Part shown: positions 1-54,547 of the stretch, piece after piece | Numbering within the stretch: the first letter of the stretch is position 1 | How the letters are laid out: each line of letters starts with the position of its first letter | Source of the DNA: Candidatus Omnitrophota bacterium | GTDB taxonomy: Bacteria > Omnitrophota > Gorgyraeia > Gygaellales > Profunditerraquicolaceae | Direction of reading: 5' to 3' | Assembly (NCBI GenBank): GCA_041663665.1 | Contig: JBAYMG010000005.1 | Coordinates: 1,354-65,353, forward strand | Length of the DNA: 64,000 nt | Translations under genes and position numbers: made by a program | Notes under the pieces: model-generated | What the model was told of the DNA's origin: nothing | The model's database searches: none | The model's input: only the letters and a program-made list of their open reading frames with translations

Positions 1-386
1 TTTATCGTCCGCTGCTTGAAACTGATATTACTAAAAAAGTAATTAACCGCTATCTTTTTGACGGTAATCTTAAGCCGGCGAAAGAGGCTCAAGCCGATCT
101 GGTGTTAAAAGGGGAATTGATTGAATACCGCAAAGATCCGTTAAGTTATAATTCGGATAATGACGAAGTTACTGAATACCGCATAAATGTTTATGTGAAT
201 TTGACTCTTTGGGATACTAAGGAAAATAAATTAATCTGGCAGGAAAATAACTTTAATGGTAATGTTTCTTATTTTACCAGTTTCGCTGCTGGAAATGTGC
301 TTAGGGTAACTGAAGATACGGCGGTAAACAATGCAATCGATGATTTGGCTCGCCGCATAGTCGAACGCACGGTCGAGCAATGGTAA
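1..386 (+). CDS. lptE: LPS-assembly lipoprotein LptE, C-terminal part (5' end outside window)
   Basis: ORF frame is open to the window edge. The alternating hydrophobic pattern (LVLKGELIEYR...YRINVYVNLTLWD...KLIWQ) resembles LptE, and it sits directly upstream of a holA-like gene as in the conserved lptE-holA synteny. Confidence 0.5.
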   Translation, partial: YRPLLETDITKKVINRYLFDGNLKPAKEAQADLVLKGELIEYRKDPLSYNSDNDEVTEYRINVYVNLTLWDTKENKLIWQENNFNGNVSYFTSFAAGNVLRVTEDTAVNNAIDDLARRIVERTVEQW

Positions 387-387
387 T

Positions 388-1026
388 ATGGTCTATTTAC
401 TTATCGGCCAGGATGTTTTGGCTAAAGAAGTTCAGCTTAAAAAGATAAAACAAGAATTCCTTCCCCGCCAGCTGCAGGATTTTAATCTGGACACGCTCTA
501 TGCTAAAGAAATAACTCTAAAAGACATCCAGGAACGTTTTTTAATTATTCCGTTAAAGAGCGTTAAAAGAATTATCGTAATTAAAGAAGCTGATTCTTTA
601 GATGAAGCATCCCGCAAATTTTTTCTAATTTATTCTAAGCATCCGCATAAACAATTAGTTCTGGTTCTAGATTTTGAACATTATGATTATAAAGATGAGT
701 TTATCCGCGGAATTTCTCCTCAGGCGCAGACATTGCGTTTTAAGGAGATAGTTAATCCGGATACATTCGCTTTAAGCCGGCAGATTGAGTTAAAAAAAAC
801 TGAGCTTTCCTTGCGCATACTGAATCAACTTCTTGGATCCGGCCAGGCGCCGGAACGAATTCTTGGTGGGCTACGTTACGCCTGGGAAAAACAGGGTATG
901 GCGGGGCAGCTTGCGCGTAAGAAGCTTAAATTACTTTTGGTTTGTGATATAGAAATAAAAACAGGCAGGCTTGCGCCTGCCTTTGCTTTGGAAAAATTAG
1001 TGGTTAGTTTATGCGGATTTGCTTAA
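388..1026 (+). CDS. holA: DNA polymerase III delta subunit-like (short HolA)
   Basis: Clamp-loader delta N-terminal domain pattern (LIGQDVLAKEVQLKKIKQ...), synteny with lptE, and a start codon overlapping the upstream stop. At 212 aa it is shorter than E. coli HolA. Confidence 0.5.
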   Translation: MVYLLIGQDVLAKEVQLKKIKQEFLPRQLQDFNLDTLYAKEITLKDIQERFLIIPLKSVKRIIVIKEADSLDEASRKFFLIYSKHPHKQLVLVLDFEHYDYKDEFIRGISPQAQTLRFKEIVNPDTFALSRQIELKKTELSLRILNQLLGSGQAPERILGGLRYAWEKQGMAGQLARKKLKLLLVCDIEIKTGRLAPAFALEKLVVSLCGFA

Positions 1027-28384: not shown

Positions 28385-28783
28385 ATGAAATTGATTACCA
28401 GGAATACCGATTATGCGCTGCGCGCAATTTGTTATATTTCCAAACAGAAGGGGATAGTTGCTGTTGATGAGTTGGTCCGCAAGCTTGATGTGCCTGGTCC
28501 GTTTATGCGCAAAATTCTGCAGCAGCTAAGTAAAGAAAAAATTTTAGAATCTTACAAAGGCCAATCTGGAGGTTTTAAATTAAGAGTCTCACCTTTAAAA
28601 ATTTACGTAATTGATATTATGCGTATTTTCCAGGGCCGTTTCAATTTAAGTGAATGTTTTCTGAAAAAAAATATCTGTCCGGATAAGGGCAAATGTGCCT
28701 TGAGTAAGAAAATACACGCTATTGAAGAGAATGTATTTAAGCAACTTAAACAAATCAGTATTGCTTCTTTAACCGCTGGATAA
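28385..28783 (+). CDS. Rrf2-family transcriptional regulator (NsrR/IscR-like, three conserved Cys)
   Basis: wHTH (TRNTDYALRAICYIS) and a C-x6-C-x5-C cluster (ECFLKKNICPDKGKCA). Confidence 0.85.
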   Translation: MKLITRNTDYALRAICYISKQKGIVAVDELVRKLDVPGPFMRKILQQLSKEKILESYKGQSGGFKLRVSPLKIYVIDIMRIFQGRFNLSECFLKKNICPDKGKCALSKKIHAIEENVFKQLKQISIASLTAG

Positions 28784-28806
28784 TCATATGTTTGAAAGGG
28801 GAATTG

Positions 28807-29037
28807 ATGTTGAATAAATGTCCGGGCCAAGATGAACGTAAAGCCAGGGCCGAAAATATAATTTGTTCTAATTGTGGTTATTTAGCTGAAATTTTTTCTG
28901 ATGAAATTCAGGTTAATTGTCCGAAATGCAAGAATCTAATTTCTAAGGAACTGCTTCCTTCTTGCATTGATTGGTGTAAGGCAGCCAGGGAATGTATTGG
29001 AGAACAAAGGTGGCGTAAACTTCAAGGGGGTGTGTAA
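28807..29037 (+). CDS. Small Cys-rich zinc-ribbon-like protein, translationally coupled to hcp
   Basis: CSNCGY...CPKC plus a CIDWC...C cluster. SD AAAGGGGA, and the stop overlaps the hcp start. Confidence 0.45.
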   Translation: MLNKCPGQDERKARAENIICSNCGYLAEIFSDEIQVNCPKCKNLISKELLPSCIDWCKAARECIGEQRWRKLQGGV

Positions 29038-30326
29038 TGTTTTGTTACCAATGTGAGCAGACAGCTCTAGGCACGGGTTGCACAAAATCCGGTGTATGCG
29101 GTAAAAATGAGGATATCCAAAGCTTGCAAGATACGCTTTTGTACGGTTTAAAAGGTATCGCTGCTTATGCGTTTCATGCCCGCCAATTAGGTTTTCGCGA
29201 TGAACAGGTAGATGCTTTTCTGCACGAAGCACTTTTTAAGACTATAACTAATGTAAGTTTTGACTTAAATCAATATCTTGAGTTGGTTTTGAGATGCGGA
29301 GAAATGAATTTAAAGATAATGGAGGTGTTGGATAAAGCGCATACACAAAAATTTGGTAATCCTGTACCCACACAGGTTGAAACCGGAACAAAAGCCGGCC
29401 CGGGTATTTTAATTACCGGGCATGATTTGTTGGATCTTTATGAACTGCTTAAGCAAACTGAAGGCACAGGGATAAATGTTTATACGCATGGGGAAATGCT
29501 TCCGGCACACGGTTATCCGGAGTTGAAAAAGTTTAAGCACTTAGCAGGTAACTACGGTGGGGCTTGGCAGGAGCAGAAAAAAGAGTTTAACACTTTTAGC
29601 GGTGCTTTGTTAGCAACGACAAACTGTGTGTTAATTCCTCCGGAAAATACGTATTTGGACAGGCTTTTTACGATAGGTATTACCGGTGTGGCAGGGGCAA
29701 CGCATTTAAAAAATCGTGATTTTAAGGCTCTGATGGGAAAAGCTAAATCATTACCTCCTTTGCCGGATGCACCGGGCAAAAAGATTTTAACCGGGTTTCA
29801 TCATACGGCAATTTTAGGCTTAGCAGATAAAATTATTCTAGCGATTAAAGCCGGGAAAATTAAGCATTTCTTTTTGATTGGCGGATGCGATGGTGCAAAG
29901 CCGGGCCGCAATTATTACACAGAGTTTGCCGAAAGAGTGCCTCAGGATTGCATAATTCTCACTTTGGCTTGTGGTAAATATCGTTTTAACAAGCTTGATT
30001 TTGGTGAGATAGAGGGTATTCCCAGGTTAATTGATATTGGACAGTGCAATAATGCTTATTCTGCCATTCAAGTAGCAGTGGCATTGTCTAAGGCATTTAA
30101 TTGTACAGTAAGCCAGCTTCCTTTGACCCTGGTGCTTTCCTGGTTTGAGCAAAAAGCAGTTGCCATTCTATTATCTTTATTGTATCTTAATATTAAAGGT
30201 ATCTATATCGGGCCAACTCCACCGGCATTTATCAGTAAAAATGTTTTTGGCCTCTTACAAGAAAAATTTGACCTGAAACTAATTAGTACTCCAGAGAGTG
30301 ATTTAAAAAAGATATTGGGAAAATAG
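29037..30326 (+). CDS. hcp: Hybrid-cluster protein (hydroxylamine reductase), short class-3 type
   Basis: N-terminal MFCYQCEQT...GCTKSGVCGK cysteine motif. 429 aa. Confidence 0.85.
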   Translation: MFCYQCEQTALGTGCTKSGVCGKNEDIQSLQDTLLYGLKGIAAYAFHARQLGFRDEQVDAFLHEALFKTITNVSFDLNQYLELVLRCGEMNLKIMEVLDKAHTQKFGNPVPTQVETGTKAGPGILITGHDLLDLYELLKQTEGTGINVYTHGEMLPAHGYPELKKFKHLAGNYGGAWQEQKKEFNTFSGALLATTNCVLIPPENTYLDRLFTIGITGVAGATHLKNRDFKALMGKAKSLPPLPDAPGKKILTGFHHTAILGLADKIILAIKAGKIKHFFLIGGCDGAKPGRNYYTEFAERVPQDCIILTLACGKYRFNKLDFGEIEGIPRLIDIGQCNNAYSAIQVAVALSKAFNCTVSQLPLTLVLSWFEQKAVAILLSLLYLNIKGIYIGPTPPAFISKNVFGLLQEKFDLKLISTPESDLKKILGK

Positions 30327-30340
30327 CGAGGAGGCGGATA

Positions 30341-30736
30341 ATGGCAGATTTTAAAGATTTATTGCAGAGTGCAGACTGGAAAACTGAAAAACACGCCCCG
30401 GTTATTGATGTGCCGGACAAGATAAGCAAGGGTGACATTTTAAAGATCGATGTCAGTGTCGGTAAACAAATAGCCCATCCGAATACTACTGATCATCATA
30501 TTAAATTTATCGAAGTATATTTTTTAGCAACCGGGGAGAAATTTCCTTATCAGGTGGCTCGTTTTGAGTTTACTGTGCATGGAGAGTCTACTCAAGGGCC
30601 AAATACCAGTACTATATTCTCTGAGCCTAAGATAACCACATCTTTTAAGACTGAAAAAAGTGGCGTAATTATGGCTGTTTCTTATTGTAATATTCATGGG
30701 CTTTGGAAGAGCGAGAAAGAAGTTAAGGTAGAATAA
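30341..30736 (+). CDS. Superoxide reductase (1Fe-SOR/neelaredoxin-type)
   Basis: EKHAPVIDV motif and His/Cys ligand spacing in a 131-aa protein. Confidence 0.8.
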   Translation: MADFKDLLQSADWKTEKHAPVIDVPDKISKGDILKIDVSVGKQIAHPNTTDHHIKFIEVYFLATGEKFPYQVARFEFTVHGESTQGPNTSTIFSEPKITTSFKTEKSGVIMAVSYCNIHGLWKSEKEVKVE

Positions 30737-30758
30737 GGGGCGAAAAAAGGAGGTCAGT

Positions 30759-31142
30759 ATGTGTTGTATTTTTTTGTTTACAGCTTTAAAAGCGATTGTT
30801 CCGATTGCGATATTATTGACAATAAGTTTCTTTGTTCTTTTGTCGATGCGCAAAGTAGAAGAGAAAGGTTTAAGGGCTTTTGGTTATGTGGCGGTAAGTT
30901 TTCTTTGGCTGGCAATTTTAGTAGTCTTTTCAGGGGCAATTTATAAAACGGCTGCCGGTCCTTTTGGGGAGAGGCGTACAGCGCAGCAAAAGATGAGAAA
31001 TTGCGATATGCCGCAGATGATGCAGCAAAACAGAATGCCGAACATGGTTATGCCGGATAAAGGTATGTCGGTTAAGGATGAAAGAAATTTTAAGGCTCCT
31101 AAGTGTGGTGGGAATAAAGGGATGGTGTTTAAAGCAGAATAA
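30759..31142 (+). CDS. Hypothetical membrane protein with Met-rich C-terminal tail
   Basis: TM helices followed by a QKMRNCDMPQMMQQNRMPNMVMPDKGM tail. Confidence 0.4.
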   Translation: MCCIFLFTALKAIVPIAILLTISFFVLLSMRKVEEKGLRAFGYVAVSFLWLAILVVFSGAIYKTAAGPFGERRTAQQKMRNCDMPQMMQQNRMPNMVMPDKGMSVKDERNFKAPKCGGNKGMVFKAE

Positions 31143-31175
31143 ATTATTGATTAGGATTTTATGCCAGGAGGGAAA

Positions 31176-31337
31176 ATGGGTAAATACAAATGTTTGGTCT
31201 GCGGTTATATTTACTACCCTAGTGCCGGAGATCCGGAGAATGGAATTGCCCCGGGTACAAGTTTTGAAGATTTACCAGATACCTGGGTTTGTCCCGAATG
31301 CGGCGTCGGTAAAGACCAATTTGAAAAAGTAGTTTAG
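31176..31337 (+). CDS. Rubredoxin (53 aa; absent from the provided ORF track)
   Basis: [53 protein letters not shown], with the two CxxCG knuckles. Confidence 0.85.
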
Positions 31338-31362
31338 TTTCTAGCTAGAGTATTAAGTTAAA

Positions 31363-32067
31363 ATGCCTCAGGAGATTCAGGTAAAAGTAAAAGAAATTAT
31401 CCAGCGTAATTATAATGTTAAGAGCGTTCGACTGGACCTTGCCGGTAATTTAGATTTTAAAGCCGGACAATTTCTTTCTGTTTCCATTGGCAGTGGACCG
31501 GGGATGAAAAAATACCTTTCTATTTCCAGTTCTCCGACCGAAAAATGTTATTTAGAATTTACTAAGAAATTAAGCGCAAGTGATTTTTCTAAGGCGCTGG
31601 ATAATTTAAAAGCCGAGGATGAAGTAACTATCCAATATCCTTTCGGTAAGTTTGTTTTGGATGAGGTTTCCCCTAAGATTGCTTTTTTATCCGGCGGGAT
31701 TGGGATTACTCCTATCCGCAGCATGATCAAATATGTAGTCGATAAAAATTTAGGCACTGATGTAGTGTTGGTTTATTCAAATCGAGCCGTGCGGGATATA
31801 GTTTTTAAAGAAGACCTTGAAGGGATGCAAAAGAAATATCCTCTTTTAAAAGTTTCACATATATTGTGTGAAGCCGAACCGAAATTTAATTGTATTGTCG
31901 GTTTAATTAACAGCAGGATAATCAGAGATGAAATTCCAGATTACCAGGAAAGAAAGTTTTATCTTTGTGGCCCGCCGTTGATGGTTGAAGCAATGCACAA
32001 AATACTGTCTGATGATTTAAATTTAACTGAAGAAAAAATAATTAGAGAAAACTTCCAGGGTTATTAA
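31363..32067 (+). CDS. FNR-like FAD/NAD(P)-binding oxidoreductase (candidate NAD(P)H:rubredoxin reductase partner)
   Basis: FAD-binding six-stranded barrel plus a NAD-binding pattern (GQFLSVSIG...LSGGIGITP). Confidence 0.6.
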   Translation: MPQEIQVKVKEIIQRNYNVKSVRLDLAGNLDFKAGQFLSVSIGSGPGMKKYLSISSSPTEKCYLEFTKKLSASDFSKALDNLKAEDEVTIQYPFGKFVLDEVSPKIAFLSGGIGITPIRSMIKYVVDKNLGTDVVLVYSNRAVRDIVFKEDLEGMQKKYPLLKVSHILCEAEPKFNCIVGLINSRIIRDEIPDYQERKFYLCGPPLMVEAMHKILSDDLNLTEEKIIRENFQGY

Positions 32068-32093
32068 TTTGTTTTAAGTCAGGGGGGGGCTTA

Positions 32094-33278
32094 ATGGCAG
32101 CTACAAAGATATTACCGGATATATATTCAGTCGGGGTTGTTGATTGGAATGTACGTAATTTTCACGGGCATACGTATACTACGCAGAGAGGCTCTAGCTA
32201 TAATGCTTATTTGATAATTGATGAAAAGATTACGCTGGTTGATACTGTTCATGGTGCGTTCGCTCAAGAATTAATTGACAACATTAAGGAAGTTATCCCT
32301 CTTGAAAAGATCGATTATATTATTGTCAACCATGTGGAATCTGATCATTCTGGGGCGCTGCCTGATATTATGCCGCTTTGCCCTAGAGCTAAAATTTTGG
32401 GCACTGCTAAGTGTAAAGAAGGCCTGTATAGGCATTATTATAAGGATTGGGATTTTCAGGTTGTTAAGACAGGGGATGAGTTGAAGCTGGGCAGGCGCAC
32501 CCTTTCCTTTATTGAAGCTCCGATGATTCATTGGCCGGACAGCATGTTTACTTACTGTCTGCAAGATGCCTTGCTTATGCCTAATGATGCTTTTGGCCAG
32601 CATTTTGCTGCAAGCGAACTTTTTGATGACCAGGTTGATCAGTGTGTTTTAATGGATGAGGCTGAAAAATATTACGCTAACATTCTTTGGCCGTTGGGAT
32701 CAGTAATCCTGAGGAAAATCCAGGAAGTTCAGAAATTAAATATACCGATTAAGATAATCGCACCCAGCCATGGAATTATCTGGCGTAAAGATCCGAATAA
32801 AATAATTAATGCTTATGTTTCCTGGGCTAAAGGTGAAACTAAAAATAAAGTAGTTATAGCTTATGAGACGATGTGGGGAGCAACTGAGAAAATGGCTAAG
32901 AAGATTGCCCTGGGCATCCAGTCTCAAGGGGTAGAGGTTAAGCTTTATGATGTAGCTGGCAGTGATCGTACCGAAATAATTACTCAAATGTTGTCTTCCA
33001 GTGGTTTTCTTTTTGGCTCTTCTACCCACGACAATGATATGCTGCCGAATATCGCCGGTTTCTTGGAAATTGTTAAAGGCCTTAAACCTAAAGGCCGGCA
33101 AATAAGTTTTTTTGGTTCATACGGCTGGGCCGGCGGAGCAGTCAAGGAAATGCAGGAAATGCTTGTTAATAGCGGAGCTAACTTTAATCTTCCGGGGGTG
33201 TCTTTTAAATATGTCCCCGACAAGGCTGAGTTAGAAAACTGTTTTAAATTTGGCGTCAATTTTGCCAAACTTTTATAA
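32094..33278 (+). CDS. Flavodiiron protein (rubredoxin:O2/NO oxidoreductase, FprA/ROO)
   Basis: Metallo-beta-lactamase-like HVESDHSG diiron motif plus a C-terminal flavodoxin domain. Confidence 0.85.
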   Translation: MAATKILPDIYSVGVVDWNVRNFHGHTYTTQRGSSYNAYLIIDEKITLVDTVHGAFAQELIDNIKEVIPLEKIDYIIVNHVESDHSGALPDIMPLCPRAKILGTAKCKEGLYRHYYKDWDFQVVKTGDELKLGRRTLSFIEAPMIHWPDSMFTYCLQDALLMPNDAFGQHFAASELFDDQVDQCVLMDEAEKYYANILWPLGSVILRKIQEVQKLNIPIKIIAPSHGIIWRKDPNKIINAYVSWAKGETKNKVVIAYETMWGATEKMAKKIALGIQSQGVEVKLYDVAGSDRTEIITQMLSSSGFLFGSSTHDNDMLPNIAGFLEIVKGLKPKGRQISFFGSYGWAGGAVKEMQEMLVNSGANFNLPGVSFKYVPDKAELENCFKFGVNFAKLL

Positions 33279-33757
33279 TGAAGCAAATTTCCCCGGAACT
33301 AATTAGTTTTTTACATCTCCAAAGTTTTGTGATAGTTACTTCAATAGATAAGGGGGGTTTTCCCCATAGTTCATGTAAAGCCATAGCCAAGATTGATTCG
33401 GTTGGTTTGATTTATCTAATTGATGTTTATCGCGGATTGACCGGTGAGAATATAAAACGTAATCCGTTAGCTGGCATTAGCGTTGTTGATGAGCATAAAT
33501 TTATAGGCTATTGTTTTAAGGGTAAAGCTAGAATTTTGCCTGATGATAACATAAGTCAGGAGATGATTAAGAAATGGGAGGATAATATTACCTCTCGTTT
33601 GGCAAAAAGATTATTGGTAAACTTATCTGCTGATAAAACTTTACGGCATCATCCTGAGGCTAGCTTGCCAAAACCCCAGCAGCTTATTGTTTTTGAGGTT
33701 GAGGATGTAGTTGATCTTGCTCCGCGTCACTTAAAAAAGGAGGTAACACATGGCTAA
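33278..33757 (+). CDS. Split-barrel FMN-binding protein (pyridoxamine 5'-phosphate oxidase-like), tentative
   Basis: Size and hydrophobic pattern only. Confidence 0.35.
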   Translation: MKQISPELISFLHLQSFVIVTSIDKGGFPHSSCKAIAKIDSVGLIYLIDVYRGLTGENIKRNPLAGISVVDEHKFIGYCFKGKARILPDDNISQEMIKKWEDNITSRLAKRLLVNLSADKTLRHHPEASLPKPQQLIVFEVEDVVDLAPRHLKKEVTHG

Positions 33758-33986
33758 AAGTGTAAAAGTTTACAGTACTCCTACTTGCCCCTGGTGCCTT
33801 CGGGTTAAAGGTTTTTTAAAGGAAAATAATATTGAATTTAAGAATTTTGATGTTGCAGTTGATTCCGGCGCAGCAGACGAAATGGTTAAAATCAGCGGAC
33901 AAATGGGTGTACCGGTTTTAGATATTGAAGGTGAAATTATTGTTGGGTTTGACAAAGAAAAAATAAAGCAGTCGCTAAATTTATAA
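33750..33986 (+). CDS. Glutaredoxin-like protein (CPWC active site)
   Basis: YSTPTCPWC thioredoxin fold at 78 aa, directly upstream of trxB. Confidence 0.65.
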   Translation: MAKSVKVYSTPTCPWCLRVKGFLKENNIEFKNFDVAVDSGAADEMVKISGQMGVPVLDIEGEIIVGFDKEKIKQSLNL

Positions 33987-34000
33987 TTTTTCGGGTCGCC

Positions 34001-34918
34001 ATGCAAATCTACGATTTGATTATTATCGGCGCAGGTCCAGCGGGAATTACAGCCAGTATTTATGCGGCTAGAAAAAAGCTGAATTTTTTAGTGATTAGCT
34101 TAAATATCGGCGGGCAAGCTGCCTGGAGCGGGGATATTGAAAATTATACCGGTTATCAATTTATTACCGGACCGGATTTGGCGCAGAAATTTGAAGAGCA
34201 TATTCGTAAATACGGTATTGAGCTTAAAGAAAATGAAGCGGTTCTTGCGCTTAAGAAGTCCGGCGAAACAATTTTCGTAAAAACCAATAAGGCAGATTAT
34301 CAGGCAAGATGTGTAATTATTGCTTCGGGGAAGAAATCAAAAGAACTGGCAGTCCCGGGAGAAAACGAATTTAAGAATCATGGTTTAACCTATTGCGCAA
34401 CTTGTGATGGGCCATTGTTTTCAGGCAGGGACGTAGCCGTAATCGGCGGCGGTAATTCTGCACTAGATGCTGCTTTGCAGTTAATTAAAATCGCCAGGTT
34501 TATTTATATAGTAAATAGCGCAGACCAGCTCCTCGGGGATATGGTAATGCGTCAGAAGATAGAAGAAGCTGGCAATGTTAAGATTTTAAATAATTCCCAA
34601 GTTTTAGCTGTGCTTGGTGATAAATTTGTTAAGGCGATTAAAATAAAGTATGGGGGAATAGAAAAAGAATTGGCAGTTAGTGGTGTTTTTGTTGAGATCG
34701 GGCTTTTTCCCAATTCCGAATTCGTAGAGGGAGTTGAAAAAAATCAAAAAAAGGAAATTGTCGTTAATTTGCATAACCAAACGAATATTCCAGGGATTTT
34801 TGCCGCGGGGGATGTTACCGATGTCCCGGAGAAACAGATTATTATTGCTGCCGGAGAAGGTTCAAAAGCTGCCCTAAGTGTTTTTCGTTATTTGGCTAAG
34901 ACAAGGTTTTCGGGATAA
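34001..34918 (+). CDS. trxB: Thioredoxin-disulfide reductase
   Basis: GAGPAG FAD motif and the CATCDG redox-active disulfide. Confidence 0.8.
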   Translation: MQIYDLIIIGAGPAGITASIYAARKKLNFLVISLNIGGQAAWSGDIENYTGYQFITGPDLAQKFEEHIRKYGIELKENEAVLALKKSGETIFVKTNKADYQARCVIIASGKKSKELAVPGENEFKNHGLTYCATCDGPLFSGRDVAVIGGGNSALDAALQLIKIARFIYIVNSADQLLGDMVMRQKIEEAGNVKILNNSQVLAVLGDKFVKAIKIKYGGIEKELAVSGVFVEIGLFPNSEFVEGVEKNQKKEIVVNLHNQTNIPGIFAAGDVTDVPEKQIIIAAGEGSKAALSVFRYLAKTRFSG

Positions 34919-34979
34919 ATATGTTGTCAGTATTTTTTGCGATGGTACAATAAAACAAAATTAACCAGAGGAGGATAAG

Positions 34980-35201
34980 ATGAGAGAGAGAATCGAAAAA
35001 GCTTTAGATAAAGTCAGGCCGATGTTAGCTGCGGATGGTGGTAATGTTGAATTAGTTGATGTAACAGCTGACGGGGTGGTTAAATTAAAGTTAAAAGGAA
35101 GCTGCGGATGCTGTCCGATGAGCTCGATGACCTTAAAGAACGGCATTGAGAAAATCTTAAGGCAGGAAGTTCCGGAAATAAAAGAAGTAGTCGCGTTATA
35201 A
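34980..35201 (+). CDS. NifU-like (Nfu) Fe-S cluster carrier domain protein
   Basis: [11 protein letters not shown] motif. Confidence 0.75.
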
Positions 35202-47859: not shown

Positions 47860-47902
47860 TTTAAAGAGGATCCCAGCATTTTATGTTGGGATTTTCTTTT
47901 TT
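47860..47902 (+). terminator. Probable rho-independent terminator (imperfect hairpin plus T-run)
   Basis: ggATCCCAgcattttatgtTGGGATtttcttttttc. Confidence 0.4.
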
Positions 47903-47923
47903 CGGGTGCTATAATAAGGCCAT

Positions 47924-49141
47924 ATGAAAAAATTTCCGCATAATTTTTTTTGGGGTGCGGCTACTAGCGCGCATCAGGTCGAAGGGAACAACATCTATAA
48001 TGACTGGTGGAACGCTGAACAGAATGGTTCTTTAAAAGCAGTTTCTGGCCAGGCCTGTTGTCATTATGAGCTATACCAGGAGGATTTTGAAATTGCCAAA
48101 GAACTTAATCATAATTGCCATCGTTTCTCTATCGAATGGAGCCGGATTGAGCCGCAAGAAGGTAAATTCGACCAGTCGGAAATTGAGCATTATCGTAAAG
48201 TCCTTGTTGAATTAAAAGATAAGGGGCTTGAGCCGGTGGTTACCCTGCATCATTTTACTAGCCCTCTCTGGTTTAGCCAAAAAGGCGGTTGGACTAAATT
48301 TAAACTGCAGAAATATTTCCTGCGATTTGTTGAAAGGATAGTTGAGGAGTTTGCCCCCCAAGTAAAATTCTGGATAACAATAAATGAACCGTTAATTTAT
48401 TCATCGCATTCTTATCTTTTGGGAGTTTGGCCGCCTAAACAATGTTCACTATTTAAGACTGCCAAGGTAACCTTGAATATGGCCAAGGCTCATATTCAAG
48501 CCTATCAAATTATACATAAAATTTATCAGGATAAATTGTTAGAGAAGCCAATGGTCAGTATTGCTGCTAATCTTCAGGCATTCGAGATTTGCCAGCCGAC
48601 TTTAAAAAATAAATTAGCACTTTATCTCCGGCATAAATTCTATAATCTTTATTTTATTGAGATGCTTTTGCGTAAGAAAACTTTGGATTATATCGGAATC
48701 AATTATTACGGTAGGAATTTAGCGGATGTACGTAGCTGGGGGATAAAGCACTTGCTGTTAGATACTTGTATGCAGAATCATCATCCGTTACGCAAGAATT
48801 CCTTAGGCTGGGATATTTACCCGCAGGGATTATATAAACTGGCGATTGCACTTAAGAGATATAAGCTTCCGATTTTTATTACTGAAAACGGCATATGTAC
48901 CGAGGATGATAACTTAAGATGGGATTATATACGGGAGCATTTGGAAGAATTACATAAGGCAATGCAGGAAGGATCCGGTATTTTAGGTTATATTTACTGG
49001 TCGCTGATTGATAACTTTGAATGGGATAAAGGGTTTGGGCCCCGGTTCGGCCTGGTTTATGTGGATTATCAAAATCAAAAACGGACCATTAAACCAAGCG
49101 CAAAAAGGTTTGCTGCCATCGCCAAAAGCGGTGAAATTTAA
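47924..49141 (+). CDS. Family-1 glycoside hydrolase (beta-glucosidase)
   Basis: FFWGAATSAHQVEGN N-terminus, with the acid/base NEP and nucleophile ITENG motifs. Confidence 0.85.
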   Translation: MKKFPHNFFWGAATSAHQVEGNNIYNDWWNAEQNGSLKAVSGQACCHYELYQEDFEIAKELNHNCHRFSIEWSRIEPQEGKFDQSEIEHYRKVLVELKDKGLEPVVTLHHFTSPLWFSQKGGWTKFKLQKYFLRFVERIVEEFAPQVKFWITINEPLIYSSHSYLLGVWPPKQCSLFKTAKVTLNMAKAHIQAYQIIHKIYQDKLLEKPMVSIAANLQAFEICQPTLKNKLALYLRHKFYNLYFIEMLLRKKTLDYIGINYYGRNLADVRSWGIKHLLLDTCMQNHHPLRKNSLGWDIYPQGLYKLAIALKRYKLPIFITENGICTEDDNLRWDYIREHLEELHKAMQEGSGILGYIYWSLIDNFEWDKGFGPRFGLVYVDYQNQKRTIKPSAKRFAAIAKSGEI

Positions 49142-51154
49142 ATGAATCTTAAAGATAAAGAATTTATAATCAAAGAGATGCCTTTTTTTGCCGGATTAAG
49201 CAAGTCAGAGCTTGCAGCCGTTTGCGCAAAAAGCCAGATTATCGAATGTTCCAAGGGGCAGGTTATTTACGAGGAGGGGTCTGCCCCAAGTGCTTTTTAT
49301 TGTATTATTTCAGGACGGGTGCAAATTTATACCAAGGGTAAAGATGGCAACCAGCTAATTCTAGAGTATCTTCACCGGGGTAAATATTTTGGGATCATTT
49401 CTCTTTTGACTAATGAGCCGCATTCGGTTTCAAGTGTGGCGATCAATGATTGCTCAATTTTAGTAATTAGAAAAGATGATTTTGATGTTGTATTGCAGGA
49501 TATCCCGCATTTAGCTATTGACTTAAGCCGTACATTAAGCCGCCGGCTTAAACGGAAAGATATACATCAGAAGAAGATATTTGAAAGCATGGTTATTTCT
49601 ATTTTTAGTTCTTATGCTCAGGCAGGTAAAACCGTTTATGCCCTGAATCTCGCTTTAAGTTTAAATCGCGAGACACATAAATCTGTAATCATTCTTGATA
49701 TCCTGCCTAAAGATAAAATACACACTTTACCTGCTAAATTAGAAATTCAGCCGCCGCCAATATTGAATTTATCTTCTGTCCTGGATATCTATACTTTACC
49801 AAAAGATTATATTTTAAAAAGTAATTTTGGCGTAGACTTGTGCTGTTTTTACTATGAAGAAAATAATGCTCTATGCCTTAAAAGGTTAATTGAGATGTTA
49901 AGTCTCTTGGTTAACGACTATCACTACATTGTTCTTGATTTGCCGGCAGCTATGGATTCTTCGATTATTAGCATGCTTAATCAATCGGATCTTATTCATA
50001 TATTAACCAGCCCTGATTCAGTAGACTTGAAACGCACCAATAATCTTATCAGCCGGTTAAGAACAGATTACAATTTTGATCTTAAAAAAATAAAAACTAT
50101 TGTTAATGAGTATAAGCTCGCTAAGATTAATTACAGTAATCAGATTGAGATCCTGGGCCAGGATATTTTTGCGACAATCCCGAGGATTGAATTTGATGCG
50201 TCCCAGCGTTTGATTATTGATGATCCTGACTGTGAATATGCTAAAACAGTCAGGAGGATTGCCCGTCAGTTAGGGGATTGTCTTGTGGGATTGGTTTTAG
50301 GAGTAGGAGTGGGTTATGGATTTTGTCATATCGGGGTACTCAAGGTTATTGAAGAAGAAAATATCCCGATTGACGTTATTGTGGGTTCGAGTATGGGATC
50401 TCTAATTGCCAGCCTTTGGGCGATTGGTAAAAGCAGCAGTGAGATCTTAGAGATTACCCGGGATTTCAGAGAACCTAAACATATTTGGGGTTTAATTGAT
50501 GTAACTTTTCCGAGAGTAGGTTTTATCAAGGGTAATAAGCTGTATCGTTTTTTGAAGAAACATCTCGGGGACAAAACTTTTTATGATACCAAACTTCCTT
50601 TAAAGATCATTGCTAGTGATGTGCGCAGGAAGGAACCAAAGATTTTAGATAAAGGTTATTTGGTTGATGCTATAATGGCCAGTTGTTCTATGCCGGGGGT
50701 CTTTGCGCCTTTCAATTTTAAAGGAGATATACTTTTTGACGGAGGGGTTACTTATCCCCTGCCTACCGAACCATTGGTGCAGATGGGAGTAAGAAAGATT
50801 ATTGCGGTAAACGTTACTCCTTCCCGGGAGGATATTTTAAAACAGCTAAAAAAAATTAAAAAAGAAATTTCTTTAGAGCCGGTAGGGCAAGCCTTAATTA
50901 AAAAACCGTTCAGTTTATTACAGCGGTTAAAAAGTATTTTTAATCTTAATATCGTTGAGATTATCTTTAGCAGTGTTGAGGTTTTACAATCGGAAGTTGC
51001 TCAAAGTGAAGGCGAATTAGCCGATATAGTTTTGCATCCAGATACTACCGGTTTATTTTGGCTGGAGCTGTATAAGGCCGATGAGTTCGCCCAACGCGGA
51101 GAGGATGAAGCGCGTAAACATTTGGATCAGATTCGACAATTAGTTAATGAATAA
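49142..51154 (+). CDS. Three-domain protein: cNMP-binding (CAP effector) domain, degenerate ParA/MinD-like domain and patatin-like phospholipase
   Basis: cNMP-binding pattern (FAGLSKSELAAVCAKSQIIECSKGQVIYEEGS...RTLSRRL). Middle ParA-like domain with a deviant P-loop (ISIFSSYAQAGKTVYALNLALSL ... HYIVLDLPA). Patatin GxGxxG (GLVLGVGVGYGFCHIGVL) and GxSxG (GSSMGS) motifs. Confidence 0.7.
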   Translation: MNLKDKEFIIKEMPFFAGLSKSELAAVCAKSQIIECSKGQVIYEEGSAPSAFYCIISGRVQIYTKGKDGNQLILEYLHRGKYFGIISLLTNEPHSVSSVAINDCSILVIRKDDFDVVLQDIPHLAIDLSRTLSRRLKRKDIHQKKIFESMVISIFSSYAQAGKTVYALNLALSLNRETHKSVIILDILPKDKIHTLPAKLEIQPPPILNLSSVLDIYTLPKDYILKSNFGVDLCCFYYEENNALCLKRLIEMLSLLVNDYHYIVLDLPAAMDSSIISMLNQSDLIHILTSPDSVDLKRTNNLISRLRTDYNFDLKKIKTIVNEYKLAKINYSNQIEILGQDIFATIPRIEFDASQRLIIDDPDCEYAKTVRRIARQLGDCLVGLVLGVGVGYGFCHIGVLKVIEEENIPIDVIVGSSMGSLIASLWAIGKSSSEILEITRDFREPKHIWGLIDVTFPRVGFIKGNKLYRFLKKHLGDKTFYDTKLPLKIIASDVRRKEPKILDKGYLVDAIMASCSMPGVFAPFNFKGDILFDGGVTYPLPTEPLVQMGVRKIIAVNVTPSREDILKQLKKIKKEISLEPVGQALIKKPFSLLQRLKSIFNLNIVEIIFSSVEVLQSEVAQSEGELADIVLHPDTTGLFWLELYKADEFAQRGEDEARKHLDQIRQLVNE

Positions 51155-51167
51155 TCAAGGGGGTATT

Positions 51168-51638
51168 ATGAAAAGCAAGGCGCGGTTATTTTCTTCTTTT
51201 TTATTATGTTTATTAATTCCTGTTTTTTTGGGATGCTCGACGGCTAAAGAGATGGGAAAAGGTTTTATCGGCGTATCAACTCAAGTCTTAGAACAAAAGC
51301 GCAATGCTGCCTTGAGCAAATCTTTTGCTTTGGGTTATAATGATTGCTATGCGAAGGTTAAGGATATCTTAAATGAGAAAGATAAAGAATCCTATATTTA
51401 TTCCGAGGATCTTAAAAAGAAAATGATTGCCTTTTATCTTACTCCGTCAGACACTACTCCTGTGGGAATATTTTTTACTGAGCAAACCGGGGGGAATACC
51501 TTGATTGAAGTGTCCAGCCCGAGTACTTATGCTAAAGAAGAAATCGCCAATAGAATTTTTAGCGGGATTAATGTTTTAATTAAATCTAAAATAACTAAGG
51601 AGAATCCGACTGATGTTAAAGAAAAAGCTGGGAATTAA
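51168..51638 (+). CDS. Hypothetical lipoprotein (start probably at MKSKARL)
   Basis: Lipobox LLCLLIPVFLGCST. Confidence 0.45.
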   Translation: MKSKARLFSSFLLCLLIPVFLGCSTAKEMGKGFIGVSTQVLEQKRNAALSKSFALGYNDCYAKVKDILNEKDKESYIYSEDLKKKMIAFYLTPSDTTPVGIFFTEQTGGNTLIEVSSPSTYAKEEIANRIFSGINVLIKSKITKENPTDVKEKAGN

Positions 51639-51921
51639 AGATTTAATCAAAGAGTGCCATAGTGTTGCTAAAAGTAAGGGTTGGTGGGATACTGAGCGTA
51701 ATGATGGAGAGTTGATTGCGTTGATGCATTCTGAACTATCTGAGGCTTTGGAAGCTATGCGCAAACACGATGAAGAGAATAATCTGGCGGAAGAGCTGGC
51801 TGATTGCTGTATTCGTATATTTGATTATTGCGGTTCGCGTAAGATAGATTTAGAGGAAGCTTTATTGAAGAAGATTGCATATAATAAGACCCGGCCTTAT
51901 CGCCACGGGAAGAAGTTTTAA
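51613..51921 (+). CDS. MazG-like nucleoside triphosphate pyrophosphohydrolase (small all-alpha type)
   Basis: ELIALMHSELSEALEAMRK and EELADCCIRIFDYCG motifs (EExxE/D metal sites). Confidence 0.6.
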   Translation: MLKKKLGIKDLIKECHSVAKSKGWWDTERNDGELIALMHSELSEALEAMRKHDEENNLAEELADCCIRIFDYCGSRKIDLEEALLKKIAYNKTRPYRHGKKF

Positions 51922-51936
51922 AAGGGAGGAACAGCA

Positions 51937-52170
51937 ATGCCATATGATAGCAGCTTGGATGCACAGCAATTCAGCCGTTTTTGGGAAAATGATTCGGGTA
52001 AAATTGTGGTCAGCGTTTATTCTTATAACAACGGCCCTAAGAAAATTCAAATTGTTAGAGAGATTAAAGATAAAAATGGGGAGTATGCTTTTGCAAAACT
52101 CGGCCGTTTGACCAAAGATGAGGCTCAAGGAGTATTGCCATTAATTCAGGAAGCCCTGAAGAATATGTAA
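51937..52170 (+). CDS. Hypothetical small protein (77 aa)
   Basis: ORF with upstream SD AAGGGAGGAACAG; no recognisable motif. Confidence 0.35.
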   Translation: MPYDSSLDAQQFSRFWENDSGKIVVSVYSYNNGPKKIQIVREIKDKNGEYAFAKLGRLTKDEAQGVLPLIQEALKNM

Positions 52171-53903: not shown

Positions 53904-54287
53904 ATGAAAAAAGTTTTAGCATTAAGCCTGATCCTAGGTTCTTTGGTATCAATTTGCGGGTGTGCACCTTTGATAATTGGGGCAGCAGCAGGAGGGCTGG
54001 GGGCGTATGGGGTAAGCAGGGATACTGTGCAAGGCGATACGGATAAAAATTATGAAGAGCTTTGGGCTTCAGCTTTGAATGTTTCCTCAGCCTGCGGTTT
54101 GATTCAGCAGGAAGATGCTGCAGGTGGTTATATTGAACTAGGTACTCAATCTAGTAAGGTTTGGATAAAGTTGGTCCGTTTAACTCAAACTGCTACCCGG
54201 GTTAAGGTGTCTGCGCGTAAGTATCATTTTCCAAATATGGAACTGGCGCAGGATATTTTTGTTAAGATTATTACCGGGGTTAAGTAG
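53904..54287 (+). CDS. Hypothetical lipoprotein (glycine-zipper-like)
   Basis: Lipobox LILGSLVSICGC and a GAAAGGLGAYG segment. Confidence 0.45.
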   Translation: MKKVLALSLILGSLVSICGCAPLIIGAAAGGLGAYGVSRDTVQGDTDKNYEELWASALNVSSACGLIQQEDAAGGYIELGTQSSKVWIKLVRLTQTATRVKVSARKYHFPNMELAQDIFVKIITGVK

Positions 54288-54290
54288 ACG

Positions 54291-54483
54291 CTCTAGATAC
54301 TTGATCTTACTATCGTTCGATCAAGTATTTCGCTGGATAAAACCTTTGGGGTGCTCTAGATACTTGATCTTACTATCGTTCGATCAAGTATTTCGCTGGA
54401 TAAAATCTTTGGGGTGCTCTAGATACTTGATCTTACTATCGTTCGATCAAGTATTTCGCTGGATAAAATCTTTGGGGTGCTCA
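54291..54483. repeat. Tandem direct repeat array, 63-bp unit, 3 copies; diverged member of the same family with an internal 10-bp inverted repeat
   Basis: CTCTAGATACTTGATCTTACTATCGTTCGATCAAGTATTTCGCTGGATAAAA(C/T)CTTTGGGGTG repeats at 54291, 54354 and 54417. Each unit contains ATACTTGATC-N12-GATCAAGTAT, and the core ACTAT.GTTCGA...ATTTCGCT.GA.AAAA.CTT..GGTG is shared with the 54-bp units. Confidence 0.95.
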
Positions 54484-54547
54484 ATATTTTCTCTTTCTTT
54501 TTTAAGGAATTTGTGTACAATATAACAAAAGCTTGAAAAGTTATTTA

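Follow-up and report, generated by a model that had tools for sequence, protein, structure and literature searches.

The 64-kb stretch of Candidatus Omnitrophota DNA analyzed here (the window) encodes a protein of 670 amino acids (aa) that joins a cyclic nucleotide monophosphate (cNMP)-binding fold to a patatin-like lipase, and the question it raises is whether such a fusion must be an immune effector. The coupling of a nucleotide sensor to a killing domain is the logic of the cyclic-oligonucleotide-based antiphage signaling systems (CBASS), whose effectors CapV and CapE are patatins, and of the Pycsar (pyrimidine cyclase system for antiphage resistance) effectors, which carry a cNMP-binding domain. 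An earlier note on this DNA, made from the sequence alone, had drawn that comparison. Unlike these systems, however, the protein studied here (the target) has no cyclase partner, no defense island and none of the expected pocket ligands, and its family is distributed vertically across the phylum. It is probably a soluble, cytoplasmic lipid acyl-hydrolase under allosteric regulation, from a housekeeping family that the Omnitrophota inherit vertically; this assessment applies to the overall picture, and confidence in the mechanism is lower. Coordinates below are positions in the window, and residue numbers are those of the 670-aa product.

A patatin lipase with a sensor and a ParA/MinD-fold insert

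Pfam searches of the full-length product matched each of the families that the earlier note had named for its three parts. The cNMP_binding family (PF00027) covers aa 35-119 (E = 2.8e-22, 78.9 bits against a cut-off of 27.5) and the Patatin family (PF01734) aa 384-545 (E = 2.6e-29, 103.2 bits against a cut-off of 27.7), with weak matches between them to CbiA (aa 160-349, E = 4.4e-5) and AAA_31 (aa 151-306, E = 0.0027). Pfam, profiles and AlphaFold/Foldseek thus agree with the open reading frame and the three domains that had been proposed, and the cited motifs are found where they had been placed; the patatin motifs read GVGVGYG, GSSMG and DGG (Table 1). The start residue is the same in homologues, and a database search found a record with the identical protein, from a Candidatus Omnitrophota metagenome-assembled genome (MAG), under the name "patatin-like phospholipase family protein". 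No signal peptide or transmembrane segment was found in the target, and the top 19-residue hydropathy windows, at most 1.86, are core patatin strands; the protein is therefore predicted to be soluble and cytoplasmic. An AlphaFold model of the full protein, based on a 78-sequence alignment, has a predicted local distance difference test score (pLDDT) of 84 and a predicted template modeling score of 0.80, the latter suggesting a defined packing of the three domains in the modeled chain. In a first AlphaFold run on a shallow alignment of 22 sequences (66-84% identity), the other two domains were modeled but the patatin part was not (pLDDT 57), and the run served for the middle-domain fold search only.

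The C-terminal domain is a lipid acyl-hydrolase domain of the RssA/PlpD type. Its best NCBIfam model is RssA (NF007623), which spans aa 382-669 and positions 6-298 of the 301 in the model (E = 7e-31), although the equivalog cut-off of that model was not reached (107.5 bits against 272). In a Foldseek search the best match is PlpD (5fya), with a template modeling (TM) score of 0.84 and an E value of 5.7e-18; CBASS CapE matches more poorly (TM of about 0.6-0.66), and plant patatin also falls clearly below PlpD. The catalytic dyad, Ser417 and Asp533, is present in all 119 of the representatives of 50%-identity clusters that were compared.

The region between sensor and lipase goes unrecognized in most database annotations. 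When it was scanned alone, CbiA scored 27.0 bits, over its gathering cut-off of 25.4, and all 22 of the family middle domains tested matched AAA_31 (best E = 3.6e-12), with matches to the ParA Pfam family as well. A profile of the middle domain compared with the Protein Data Bank (PDB) matched 3ea0 (3.2e-18) and the archaeal MinD structures 1ion (1e-13) and 1g3q (2e-13) at full length, followed by Soj and FlhG, with polysaccharide tyrosine kinases scoring lower. The AlphaFold models of the region, in which strands and helices alternate, superpose on 3ea0 with TM scores of 0.73-0.76 (Foldseek E of about 1e-11; 1.2e-11 at TM 0.76). These three independent lines (Pfam, profiles and predicted structure) thus assign the middle domain to the ParA/MinD fold, bearing out its earlier description as ParA-like.

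Its ATPase motifs are in large part degenerate. Aligned by HMMER to the MinD motif SGKGGTGKTT, the loop FSSYAQAGKT has Tyr158 at the position of the signature lysine and Ala159-Gln160 in place of Gly-Gly, with Gly162-Lys163-Thr164 retained, and the deviant Walker A motif KGGxxGK[ST] with its signature lysine is accordingly not present in the target (SSYAQAGKT). Within the close clade this loop is invariant. Across the 78-sequence alignment, Gly162 is kept in 76 members and Thr or Ser at position 164 in 76, and position 163 is Lys or Arg in 64 (Arg 37, Lys 27, other residues 14). Among the 119 representatives, GK[ST] is found in 25 (about 21%) and GR[ST] in 7, the loop being different or unrecognizable in the other 87. 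The wording of the earlier note, a deviant and probably inactive P-loop, is therefore fair, and so is its statement that downstream ParA motifs are retained, as HYIVLDLPA (aa 261-269) and HILTSPDSVDLKRTNNLISRL (aa 286-306). Asp266, Gln281 and Asp283 each occur in 78 of the 78 aligned sequences; in the 119 more distant representatives, Asp266 is kept in 58, Asp283 in 94 and Arg375 in 114. A lipase dyad in 119 of 119, set against GK[ST] in 25 and the Walker B aspartate in 58, indicates that selection acts on the lipase and has kept the fold of the middle domain and a few of its surface or core residues, rather than ATPase chemistry. The nearest solved relative, 3ea0, annotated as a "ParA family ATPase" from Chlorobium tepidum, has the loop KGGDGGS, without the Walker lysine, and may also be a pseudo-ATPase.

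It may be that the middle domain is instead a working switch, with ATP, ADP or another phosphate-bearing metabolite, such as CoA or acyl-CoA, bound at the GKT loop to gate the lipase. Such a model would explain why Gly162-Lys163-Thr164, Asp186 and Asp266 are invariant in the clade of 66-84% identity and why the three loop positions remain largely conserved over the mid-range family, and the aberrant loop of 3ea0 itself can be counted on its side. It is nevertheless unlikely, given that the deviant Walker A motif has lost both its signature lysine and its Gly-Gly pair, that Arg stands for Lys in about half of the mid-range family, that the loop is unrecognizable in 87 of 119 representatives in which the lipase dyad is universal, and that relatives in the Desulfobacteraceae have only GLS or GVS at this site.

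Sensor pocket and oxyanion motif

The N-terminal domain has the CAP/CRP-type fold, matching CRP, GlxR and PKA-R in Foldseek at E values of about 1e-11 to 1e-12, and its pLDDT in the 78-sequence model is 85-93. In the phosphate-binding cassette of such domains, a glutamate contacts the ribose 2'-OH and an arginine the cyclic phosphate of cAMP or cGMP. HMMER alignments to the cNMP sites of PKG and PKA show both residues to be missing from the target pocket: FG-I85 lies opposite FG-E, and P-H94-S opposite P-R-T/S. His94 occurs in all 78 family members of the alignment, and position 85 varies (Ile 33, Glu 19, Thr 12, Met 9, Val 5). Among the 119 representatives, the arginine position is His in 95 and Arg in 15. 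The earlier note had likened the protein to cNMP-gated effectors and had itself named a pocket without these residues as evidence to the contrary, so that the comparison is not supported. With the canonical Glu and Arg contacts lost, the sensor probably binds another small ligand, or none. In the trypanosome PKA-R, where the cassette arginine is replaced, the ligand has shifted from cAMP to nucleosides; 6h4g, one such structure, is among the fold matches, and the case serves as an analogy only. The Desulfobacteraceae and Chloroflexota relatives keep the canonical cassette, FGEMALL...R[SN]A, and the family ancestor was therefore probably a true cNMP-regulated lipase whose specificity was retuned or lost in the Omnitrophota branch.

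The lipase has a substitution of its own. The basic Arg or Lys of the oxyanion motif GGGx[RK]G is not present in the target, which has Tyr392. This position is hydrophobic across the Omnitrophota (Leu 37, Phe 16, Tyr 12, Met 11 and Arg 1 of 78), and in the Desulfobacteraceae and Chloroflexota relatives the arginine is kept. The histidine pocket and the non-basic oxyanion motif occur together (82 + 23 concordant against 13 + 10 discordant cases; Fisher p = 4e-9, with kinship ignored). A basic oxyanion residue is retained in PNPLA phospholipases and missing in triglyceride lipases such as ATGL, and by analogy the non-basic residue at position 392 hints at a substrate without phosphate.

Both substitutions bear on whether the target could be an NTE/PNPLA6-like (lyso)phospholipase for phospholipid homeostasis in membranes, whose variant pocket would keep it under the control of cAMP or cGMP. 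The combination of sensor and patatin is that of NTE, members of the family are named "NTE family protein" by JGI, and the relatives just mentioned keep both the FGE...R pocket and the basic oxyanion residue; the window also holds the envelope-lipid genes Lnt, lipid A acyltransferase, MurJ and LptE. However, the pocket arginine and the basic residue of GGGxRG are both replaced in the Omnitrophota, the two replacements go together in the comparison above, and the target is without a membrane anchor. This alternative is thus rather unlikely.

Family distribution and gene neighborhoods

An exhaustive profile-free search gave 1358 cluster representatives at E <= 1e-30, and more than 100 clusters (50% identity) align end to end with the target at 28-43% identity. 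The architecture, which had been called unusual, is therefore not rare. Across the Candidatus Omnitrophota, the whole family ranges from 28 to 84% identity to the target. The source names of close hits are all Candidatus Omnitrophota/Omnitrophica or an unspecific "bacterium", as are those of mid-range hits apart from one "Candidatus Eisenbacteria". In GTDB contigs, searched at one genome per species, full-length matches come from Omnitrophota MAGs, some MAGs labeled uncultured Planctomycetales or Verrucomicrobiia, and two Desulfobacteraceae, with shorter versions of about 560 aa in the Chloroflexota. A search that started from the Desulfobacteraceae protein retrieved a broad clade. Two cultured species, Desulfobacter curvatus and D. 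latus, are among its members, and their proteins are annotated only as cNMP-binding and patatin. The target can be aligned from end to end with the Desulfobacteraceae proteins, at 25-26% identity. Homology extends to their middle region, which hhalign matches to the ParA-like domain of the Omnitrophota with a probability of 95.6% (E = 1.2e-8); in it the P-loop is lost (GLS or GVS), and the sensor pocket of these proteins is canonical.

Four Omnitrophota loci code for family members of about 490-520 aa that consist of the ParA-like domain and the patatin and have no sensor (Table 1); two of these, in loci L034 and L035, lie directly 3' of a FadB-like gene. Together with the degenerate ParA-like domain of the Desulfobacteraceae, these variants suggest that the ParA-like domain is the constant companion of the lipase and the sensor a variable add-on. 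In the Chloroflexota proteins, the linker of about 130 aa between sensor and patatin matches the ParA-like domain weakly, at an hhalign probability of only 16%, and may be a strongly reduced remnant of it. A full-text literature search found no description of the ParA-like insert or of a sensor-ParA-patatin family.

The genomic contexts of the divergent members (25-38% identity) differ from that of the window, the gene block of the close clade being gone. Beta-oxidation genes, mostly as the direct neighbor, were counted within 7 kb and in the same orientation at 21 of the 31 divergent loci, with loci taken as independent and kinship ignored. The genes counted were those for acyl-CoA dehydrogenase, thiolase, 3-hydroxyacyl-CoA dehydrogenase, enoyl-CoA hydratase and acyl-CoA ligase; the first is immediately upstream of the target homologue in ten loci, and one of the other four is immediately downstream in nine. 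Fatty-acid beta-oxidation enzymes are best read as the ancestral operon partners of the family. Both Desulfobacteraceae contexts examined contain ordinary housekeeping or envelope genes. Homologues are thus found in housekeeping or lipid-metabolism surroundings, the second kind of evidence that the earlier note had itself named as speaking against its reading.

Other genes were seen near family members in some loci. PilZ domains are receptors for cyclic di-GMP, and some distant members of the family have one or more small PilZ genes upstream on the same strand, in L014 (4010-4387), L019 (3449-4069), L024 (6534-6890), L085 (4043-4417) and L086 (4840-6990); these genes abut the target homologue in L019, L024 and L086 and are about 2.6 kb away in L014 and L085. 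These neighbors may mean a link to a second messenger. An MMPL transporter and DUF1329 are located near family members in two phyla, in L083 (1-4490; Omnitrophota) and L090 (11272-17977; Desulfobacteraceae), with DUF1302 only in the Omnitrophota locus.

The window itself is core genome. Nearly all of its genes are on the plus strand and the GC skew is positive in every 2-kb bin, consistent with the leading strand of one replichore in a compact genome. Within 10 kb upstream of the target are, in order, MnmA, NadA, a pseudouridine synthase, BacA, a PfkB kinase, MscL, YqeY and an MFS transporter, and then, directly before it, a peptidoglycan-binding lipoprotein and a glycoside hydrolase of family 1 (GH1). 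The target is followed by a DUF3568-like lipoprotein, a 102-aa MazG-domain protein, a 77-aa protein and an SNF transporter, and beyond these, within 10 kb, by DUF3568, a cold-shock protein, another MFS transporter and the Rnf complex. The lipoprotein and the small MazG-like gene had already been recognized in the earlier note, and its view of them is upheld by a lipobox and by a PF03819 score over the cut-off (Table 1). An open reading frame listed from 51147 would overlap the target's stop codon; the lipoprotein gene as called starts at 51168. An overlap of 26 nt between the MazG-domain reading frame and the 3' end of the lipoprotein gene points to closely coupled translation in this block. 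A promoter-like site at 47886-47915 lies upstream of GH1, and an operon start there is tentative, since such sites are not above chance regionally and promoters and terminators were no more frequent in a scan of the sequence than in shuffled versions of it.

Table 1. Positions of the target, its domains and motifs, adjacent genes, and domain variants in homologous loci
Feature	Sequence	Coordinates	Residues	Strand	Basis or remark
Target gene	Window	49142..51154	1-670	+	670-aa product; CNB-like sensor, ParA/MinD-fold pseudo-ATPase (probable), patatin lipase
CAP/CRP-type cyclic-nucleotide-binding fold with C-helix (aa 122-138)	Window	49142..49561	1-140	+	PF00027, Foldseek
Phosphate-binding cassette FGIISLLTNEPHSVSS	Window	49388..49435	83-98	+	HMMER alignments to PKG and PKA sites
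Ile85 in place of Glu	Window	49394-49396	85	+	HMMER alignments
His94 in place of Arg	Window	49421-49423	94	+	HMMER alignments
ParA/MinD-fold (SIMIBI class) domain, probable pseudo-ATPase	Window	49586..50275	149-378	+	Closest PDB entry 3ea0
Degenerate P-loop FSSYAQAGKT	Window	49604..49633	155-164	+	Alignment to MinD motif SGKGGTGKTT
Walker-B-like strand YIVLD266LP and conserved Q281-S-D283	Window	49925..49990	262-283	+	Alignments
RssA/PlpD-type patatin lipid acyl-hydrolase domain	Window	50285..51154	382-670	+	PF01734, NCBIfam, Foldseek
Patatin motif GVGVGYG	Window	50300-50320	387-393	+	Gly-rich oxyanion loop
Patatin motif GSS417MG	Window	50384-50398	415-419	+	Catalytic Ser417
Patatin motif D533GG	Window	50738-50746	533-535	+	Dyad Asp533
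GH1 glycoside hydrolase	Window	47924..49141		+	PF00232, E = 2.4e-85; TAA stop abuts target ATG (TAAATG)
DUF3568-like lipoprotein	Window	51168-51638		+	Lipobox FLGC; begins MKSKARLF; start as called in public assembly
102-aa MazG-domain protein	Window	51613-51921		+	PF03819, E = 1.7e-5, 25.4 bits against cut-off 22
77-aa protein	Window	51937-52170		+	Downstream block
Sensor-less ParA-like + patatin	L032	3365-4915			About 490-520 aa
Sensor-less ParA-like + patatin	L034	4991-6538			About 490-520 aa
Sensor-less ParA-like + patatin	L035	1748-3346			About 490-520 aa
Sensor-less ParA-like + patatin	L036	6911-8479			About 490-520 aa
Chloroflexota cNMP + patatin	L041	4326-6005			559-578 aa; canonical FGE...R pocket
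Chloroflexota cNMP + patatin	L043	6977-8656			559-578 aa; canonical FGE...R pocket
Chloroflexota cNMP + patatin	L058	6950-8686			559-578 aa; canonical FGE...R pocket

The gene order of the close clade is YqeY-MFS-PG_binding-GH1-target-lipoprotein-MazG-p77-SNF. GH1 is directly upstream in the close-clade loci whose contig reaches that far (L001-L006 and L008-L011), the lipoprotein and MazG-domain genes are syntenic in L001 and L003-L007 (L002 ends inside the lipoprotein gene), and the 77-aa gene turned up in just three loci, L001, L003 and L005. Relatives of at least 55% identity keep most of the block from the PG-binding to the SNF gene, with some members missing in particular loci. Near the distant homologues, beyond the clade of at least 55% identity, the target's neighbors are not conserved, GH1 excepted, which is adjacent in L028 and lies 5.5 kb upstream in L023. 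The MazG, lipoprotein and SNF genes are thus a matter of clade-level synteny and not partners of the family.

The position of GH1 in the window's clade, where it appears to replace the beta-oxidation neighbors and its stop codon abuts the target's start, raises the hypothesis of a clade-specific breakdown of glycolipids, in which GH1 would remove the sugar head group of glycoglycerolipids and the patatin domain their acyl chains. The pair is kept in the close-clade loci that reach upstream and in the distant L028, the non-basic oxyanion motif speaks against phosphate-bearing substrates, and patatins are galactolipases. Adjacency alone is a weak argument, however; GH1 substrates are very broad, and the GH1 neighbor is missing for most divergent family members. 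The hypothesis is quite improbable.

Two further features of the window can be recorded. A 63-bp tandem repeat at 54290-54482 (3.1 copies, 99% identical), with an inverted repeat AGATACTTGATC...GATCAAGTATTT in each unit, sits in the gap that separates the DUF3568 lipoprotein gene from the cold-shock gene on the minus strand, and yields a spurious 88-aa repeat reading frame at 54259-54525. At about 28400-35000 there is a co-directional oxidative/nitrosative stress cluster with an Rrf2 regulator, hybrid-cluster protein (Prismane), desulfoferrodoxin, rubredoxin, a flavodiiron-type protein (Lactamase_B plus flavodoxin), glutaredoxin and a pyridine-nucleotide disulfide reductase. Along with this cluster, SecA, MurJ, UvrC, Lnt, lipid A acyltransferase and LptE are encoded elsewhere in the window.

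This context also bears on the immune-effector question. An anti-phage effector would depend on a cyclase encoded elsewhere, whose cyclic nucleotide, bound by the N-terminal domain, would let the patatin domain loose to destroy the membrane, in the manner of abortive infection by Pycsar or CBASS. PADLOC gave only weak domain-level hits (a phospholipase effector at 36 bits and the PycTIR cNMP domain at 29 bits), and the NCBIfam models for a CBASS lipase (NF041079; E = 0.0054, 16 bits where the cut-off is 200) and for an anti-phage phospholipase (DS2_1; E = 1.4e-6) stayed far under their cut-offs. These sub-threshold matches and the resemblance of the patatin fold to CapE are what can be said for such a role. 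No TIR domain or transmembrane killing segment was found in the target by Pfam or hydropathy. Among the Pfam hits on record for called genes over about 1-61 kb of the window, there is no nucleotide cyclase, in keeping with the earlier remark that none is encoded nearby, and no integrase, mobile-element, restriction, toxin-antitoxin or other defense family; nor is there a cyclase beside any homologue locus examined. Membership in a defense system was rejected on the sub-threshold PADLOC and NCBIfam hits together with the housekeeping context. With the Glu and Arg contacts gone from the pocket, housekeeping synteny in the close clade, a phylum-wide rather than patchy family, beta-oxidation neighbors dominating the divergent loci, and a patatin domain nearer to PlpD/RssA than to CapV/CapE, an anti-phage role is highly improbable. 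The likeness to CapV and Pycsar effectors suggested in the earlier note is therefore not supported, since pocket residues, cyclase and defense island are all wanting, and the MazG gene that it took as a hint of defense belongs to the vertically conserved block of the close clade.

A putatively regulated lipase and its relatives

The reading favored here is that of a housekeeping lipase under allosteric control. The CAP-fold domain would have given up cAMP or cGMP for another small ligand. The ParA-fold pseudo-ATPase, unfit for catalysis as an ATP-sandwich dimer, would act as a rigid adaptor or oligomerization platform that passes the signal on, and the patatin domain would then release fatty acids. 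In the cell the protein would likely free fatty acids from lipids in a controlled way, to feed beta-oxidation or in the course of lipid turnover, and would not destroy membranes as in abortive infection; in the window's clade, a GH1 glycosidase would have taken the place of the beta-oxidation neighbors. A more far-reaching version is less likely. In it, the ParA/MinD-fold pseudo-ATPase would be an obligate regulatory partner of this patatin lineage in the Omnitrophota, the Desulfobacteraceae and perhaps more widely, and, with a sensor retuned via the invariant histidine and a lipase shifted from phospholipids to neutral lipids or glycolipids, the protein would be a metabolite-gated switch for the supply of beta-oxidation.

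Several points weigh against the favored reading. The association with beta-oxidation genes was counted as if the loci shared no kinship. Such genes are not adjacent to the target in the window's clade and none occurs in the 64-kb window, where a lipid-catabolic role is proposed from the context of distant homologues. In the same clade, the invariant Gly162-Lys163-Thr164, Asp186 and Asp266 could still allow the middle domain to bind a nucleotide. A phosphate contact by His94 is also conceivable, and the sensor could therefore accept a cyclic nucleotide or another phosphorylated ligand.

The target belongs to the patatin, CAP-fold and ParA/MinD-fold superfamilies, and is not an RssA, CBASS or Pycsar protein. 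The closest known kind are the bacterial "NTE family" proteins of D. curvatus and D. latus, eukaryotic NTE/PNPLA6 being more remote; Rv2565 of Mycobacterium tuberculosis is probably another bacterial NTE-family example with cNMP and patatin domains. Like the Desulfobacter proteins, the target has a CAP-type fold followed by an RssA-type patatin in one cytoplasmic chain, and the middle domain is common to both. The Desulfobacteraceae proteins differ in their FGE...R pocket and basic oxyanion residue, where the Omnitrophota have histidine and a hydrophobic residue, and their annotations do not mention the ParA-like domain. With NTE (PNPLA6, Swiss cheese) the target shares the placing of cNMP-binding folds, as regulatory domains, ahead of a Ser-Asp patatin esterase. 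NTE, however, is anchored by an N-terminal transmembrane segment, carries three cNMP-like domains and lacks the ParA-like domain, while in the target a single sensor domain is joined to a ParA-fold insert and no membrane segment is present. In sequence and structure, aa 382-670 come closest to RssA (Escherichia coli YchK) and PlpD; unlike the target, RssA is a stand-alone domain and PlpD the passenger of a secreted type Vd autotransporter. The middle domain has the fold and the motif order of ParA/MinD (SIMIBI) ATPases, with a P-loop strand, the switch-I aspartate, the hhhhD-x-P Walker B motif and a C-terminal helix, but sits between two other domains, unlike the free partition and positioning ATPases. 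What is new within the sensor-patatin lipases is thus the unannotated pseudo-ATPase, as a putative adaptor, and what appears to be a retuned pocket.

Fusions of a cNMP-binding domain and a patatin are therefore not always immune effectors, and an attractive reading of this locus is corrected. A large uncharacterized family is now defined across a poorly understood phylum whose members are suspected of host-dependent lifestyles, and the cultured Desulfobacter members make it accessible at the bench. If a dead partition-type ATPase does couple the sensor to the lipase, it would be a new example of regulation by a pseudo-enzyme. The passage from an arginine pocket with a basic oxyanion motif to a histidine pocket with a hydrophobic one provides a natural series for the co-evolution of sensor and lipase, and the link to beta-oxidation operons gives a testable handle on lipid use in the Omnitrophota.

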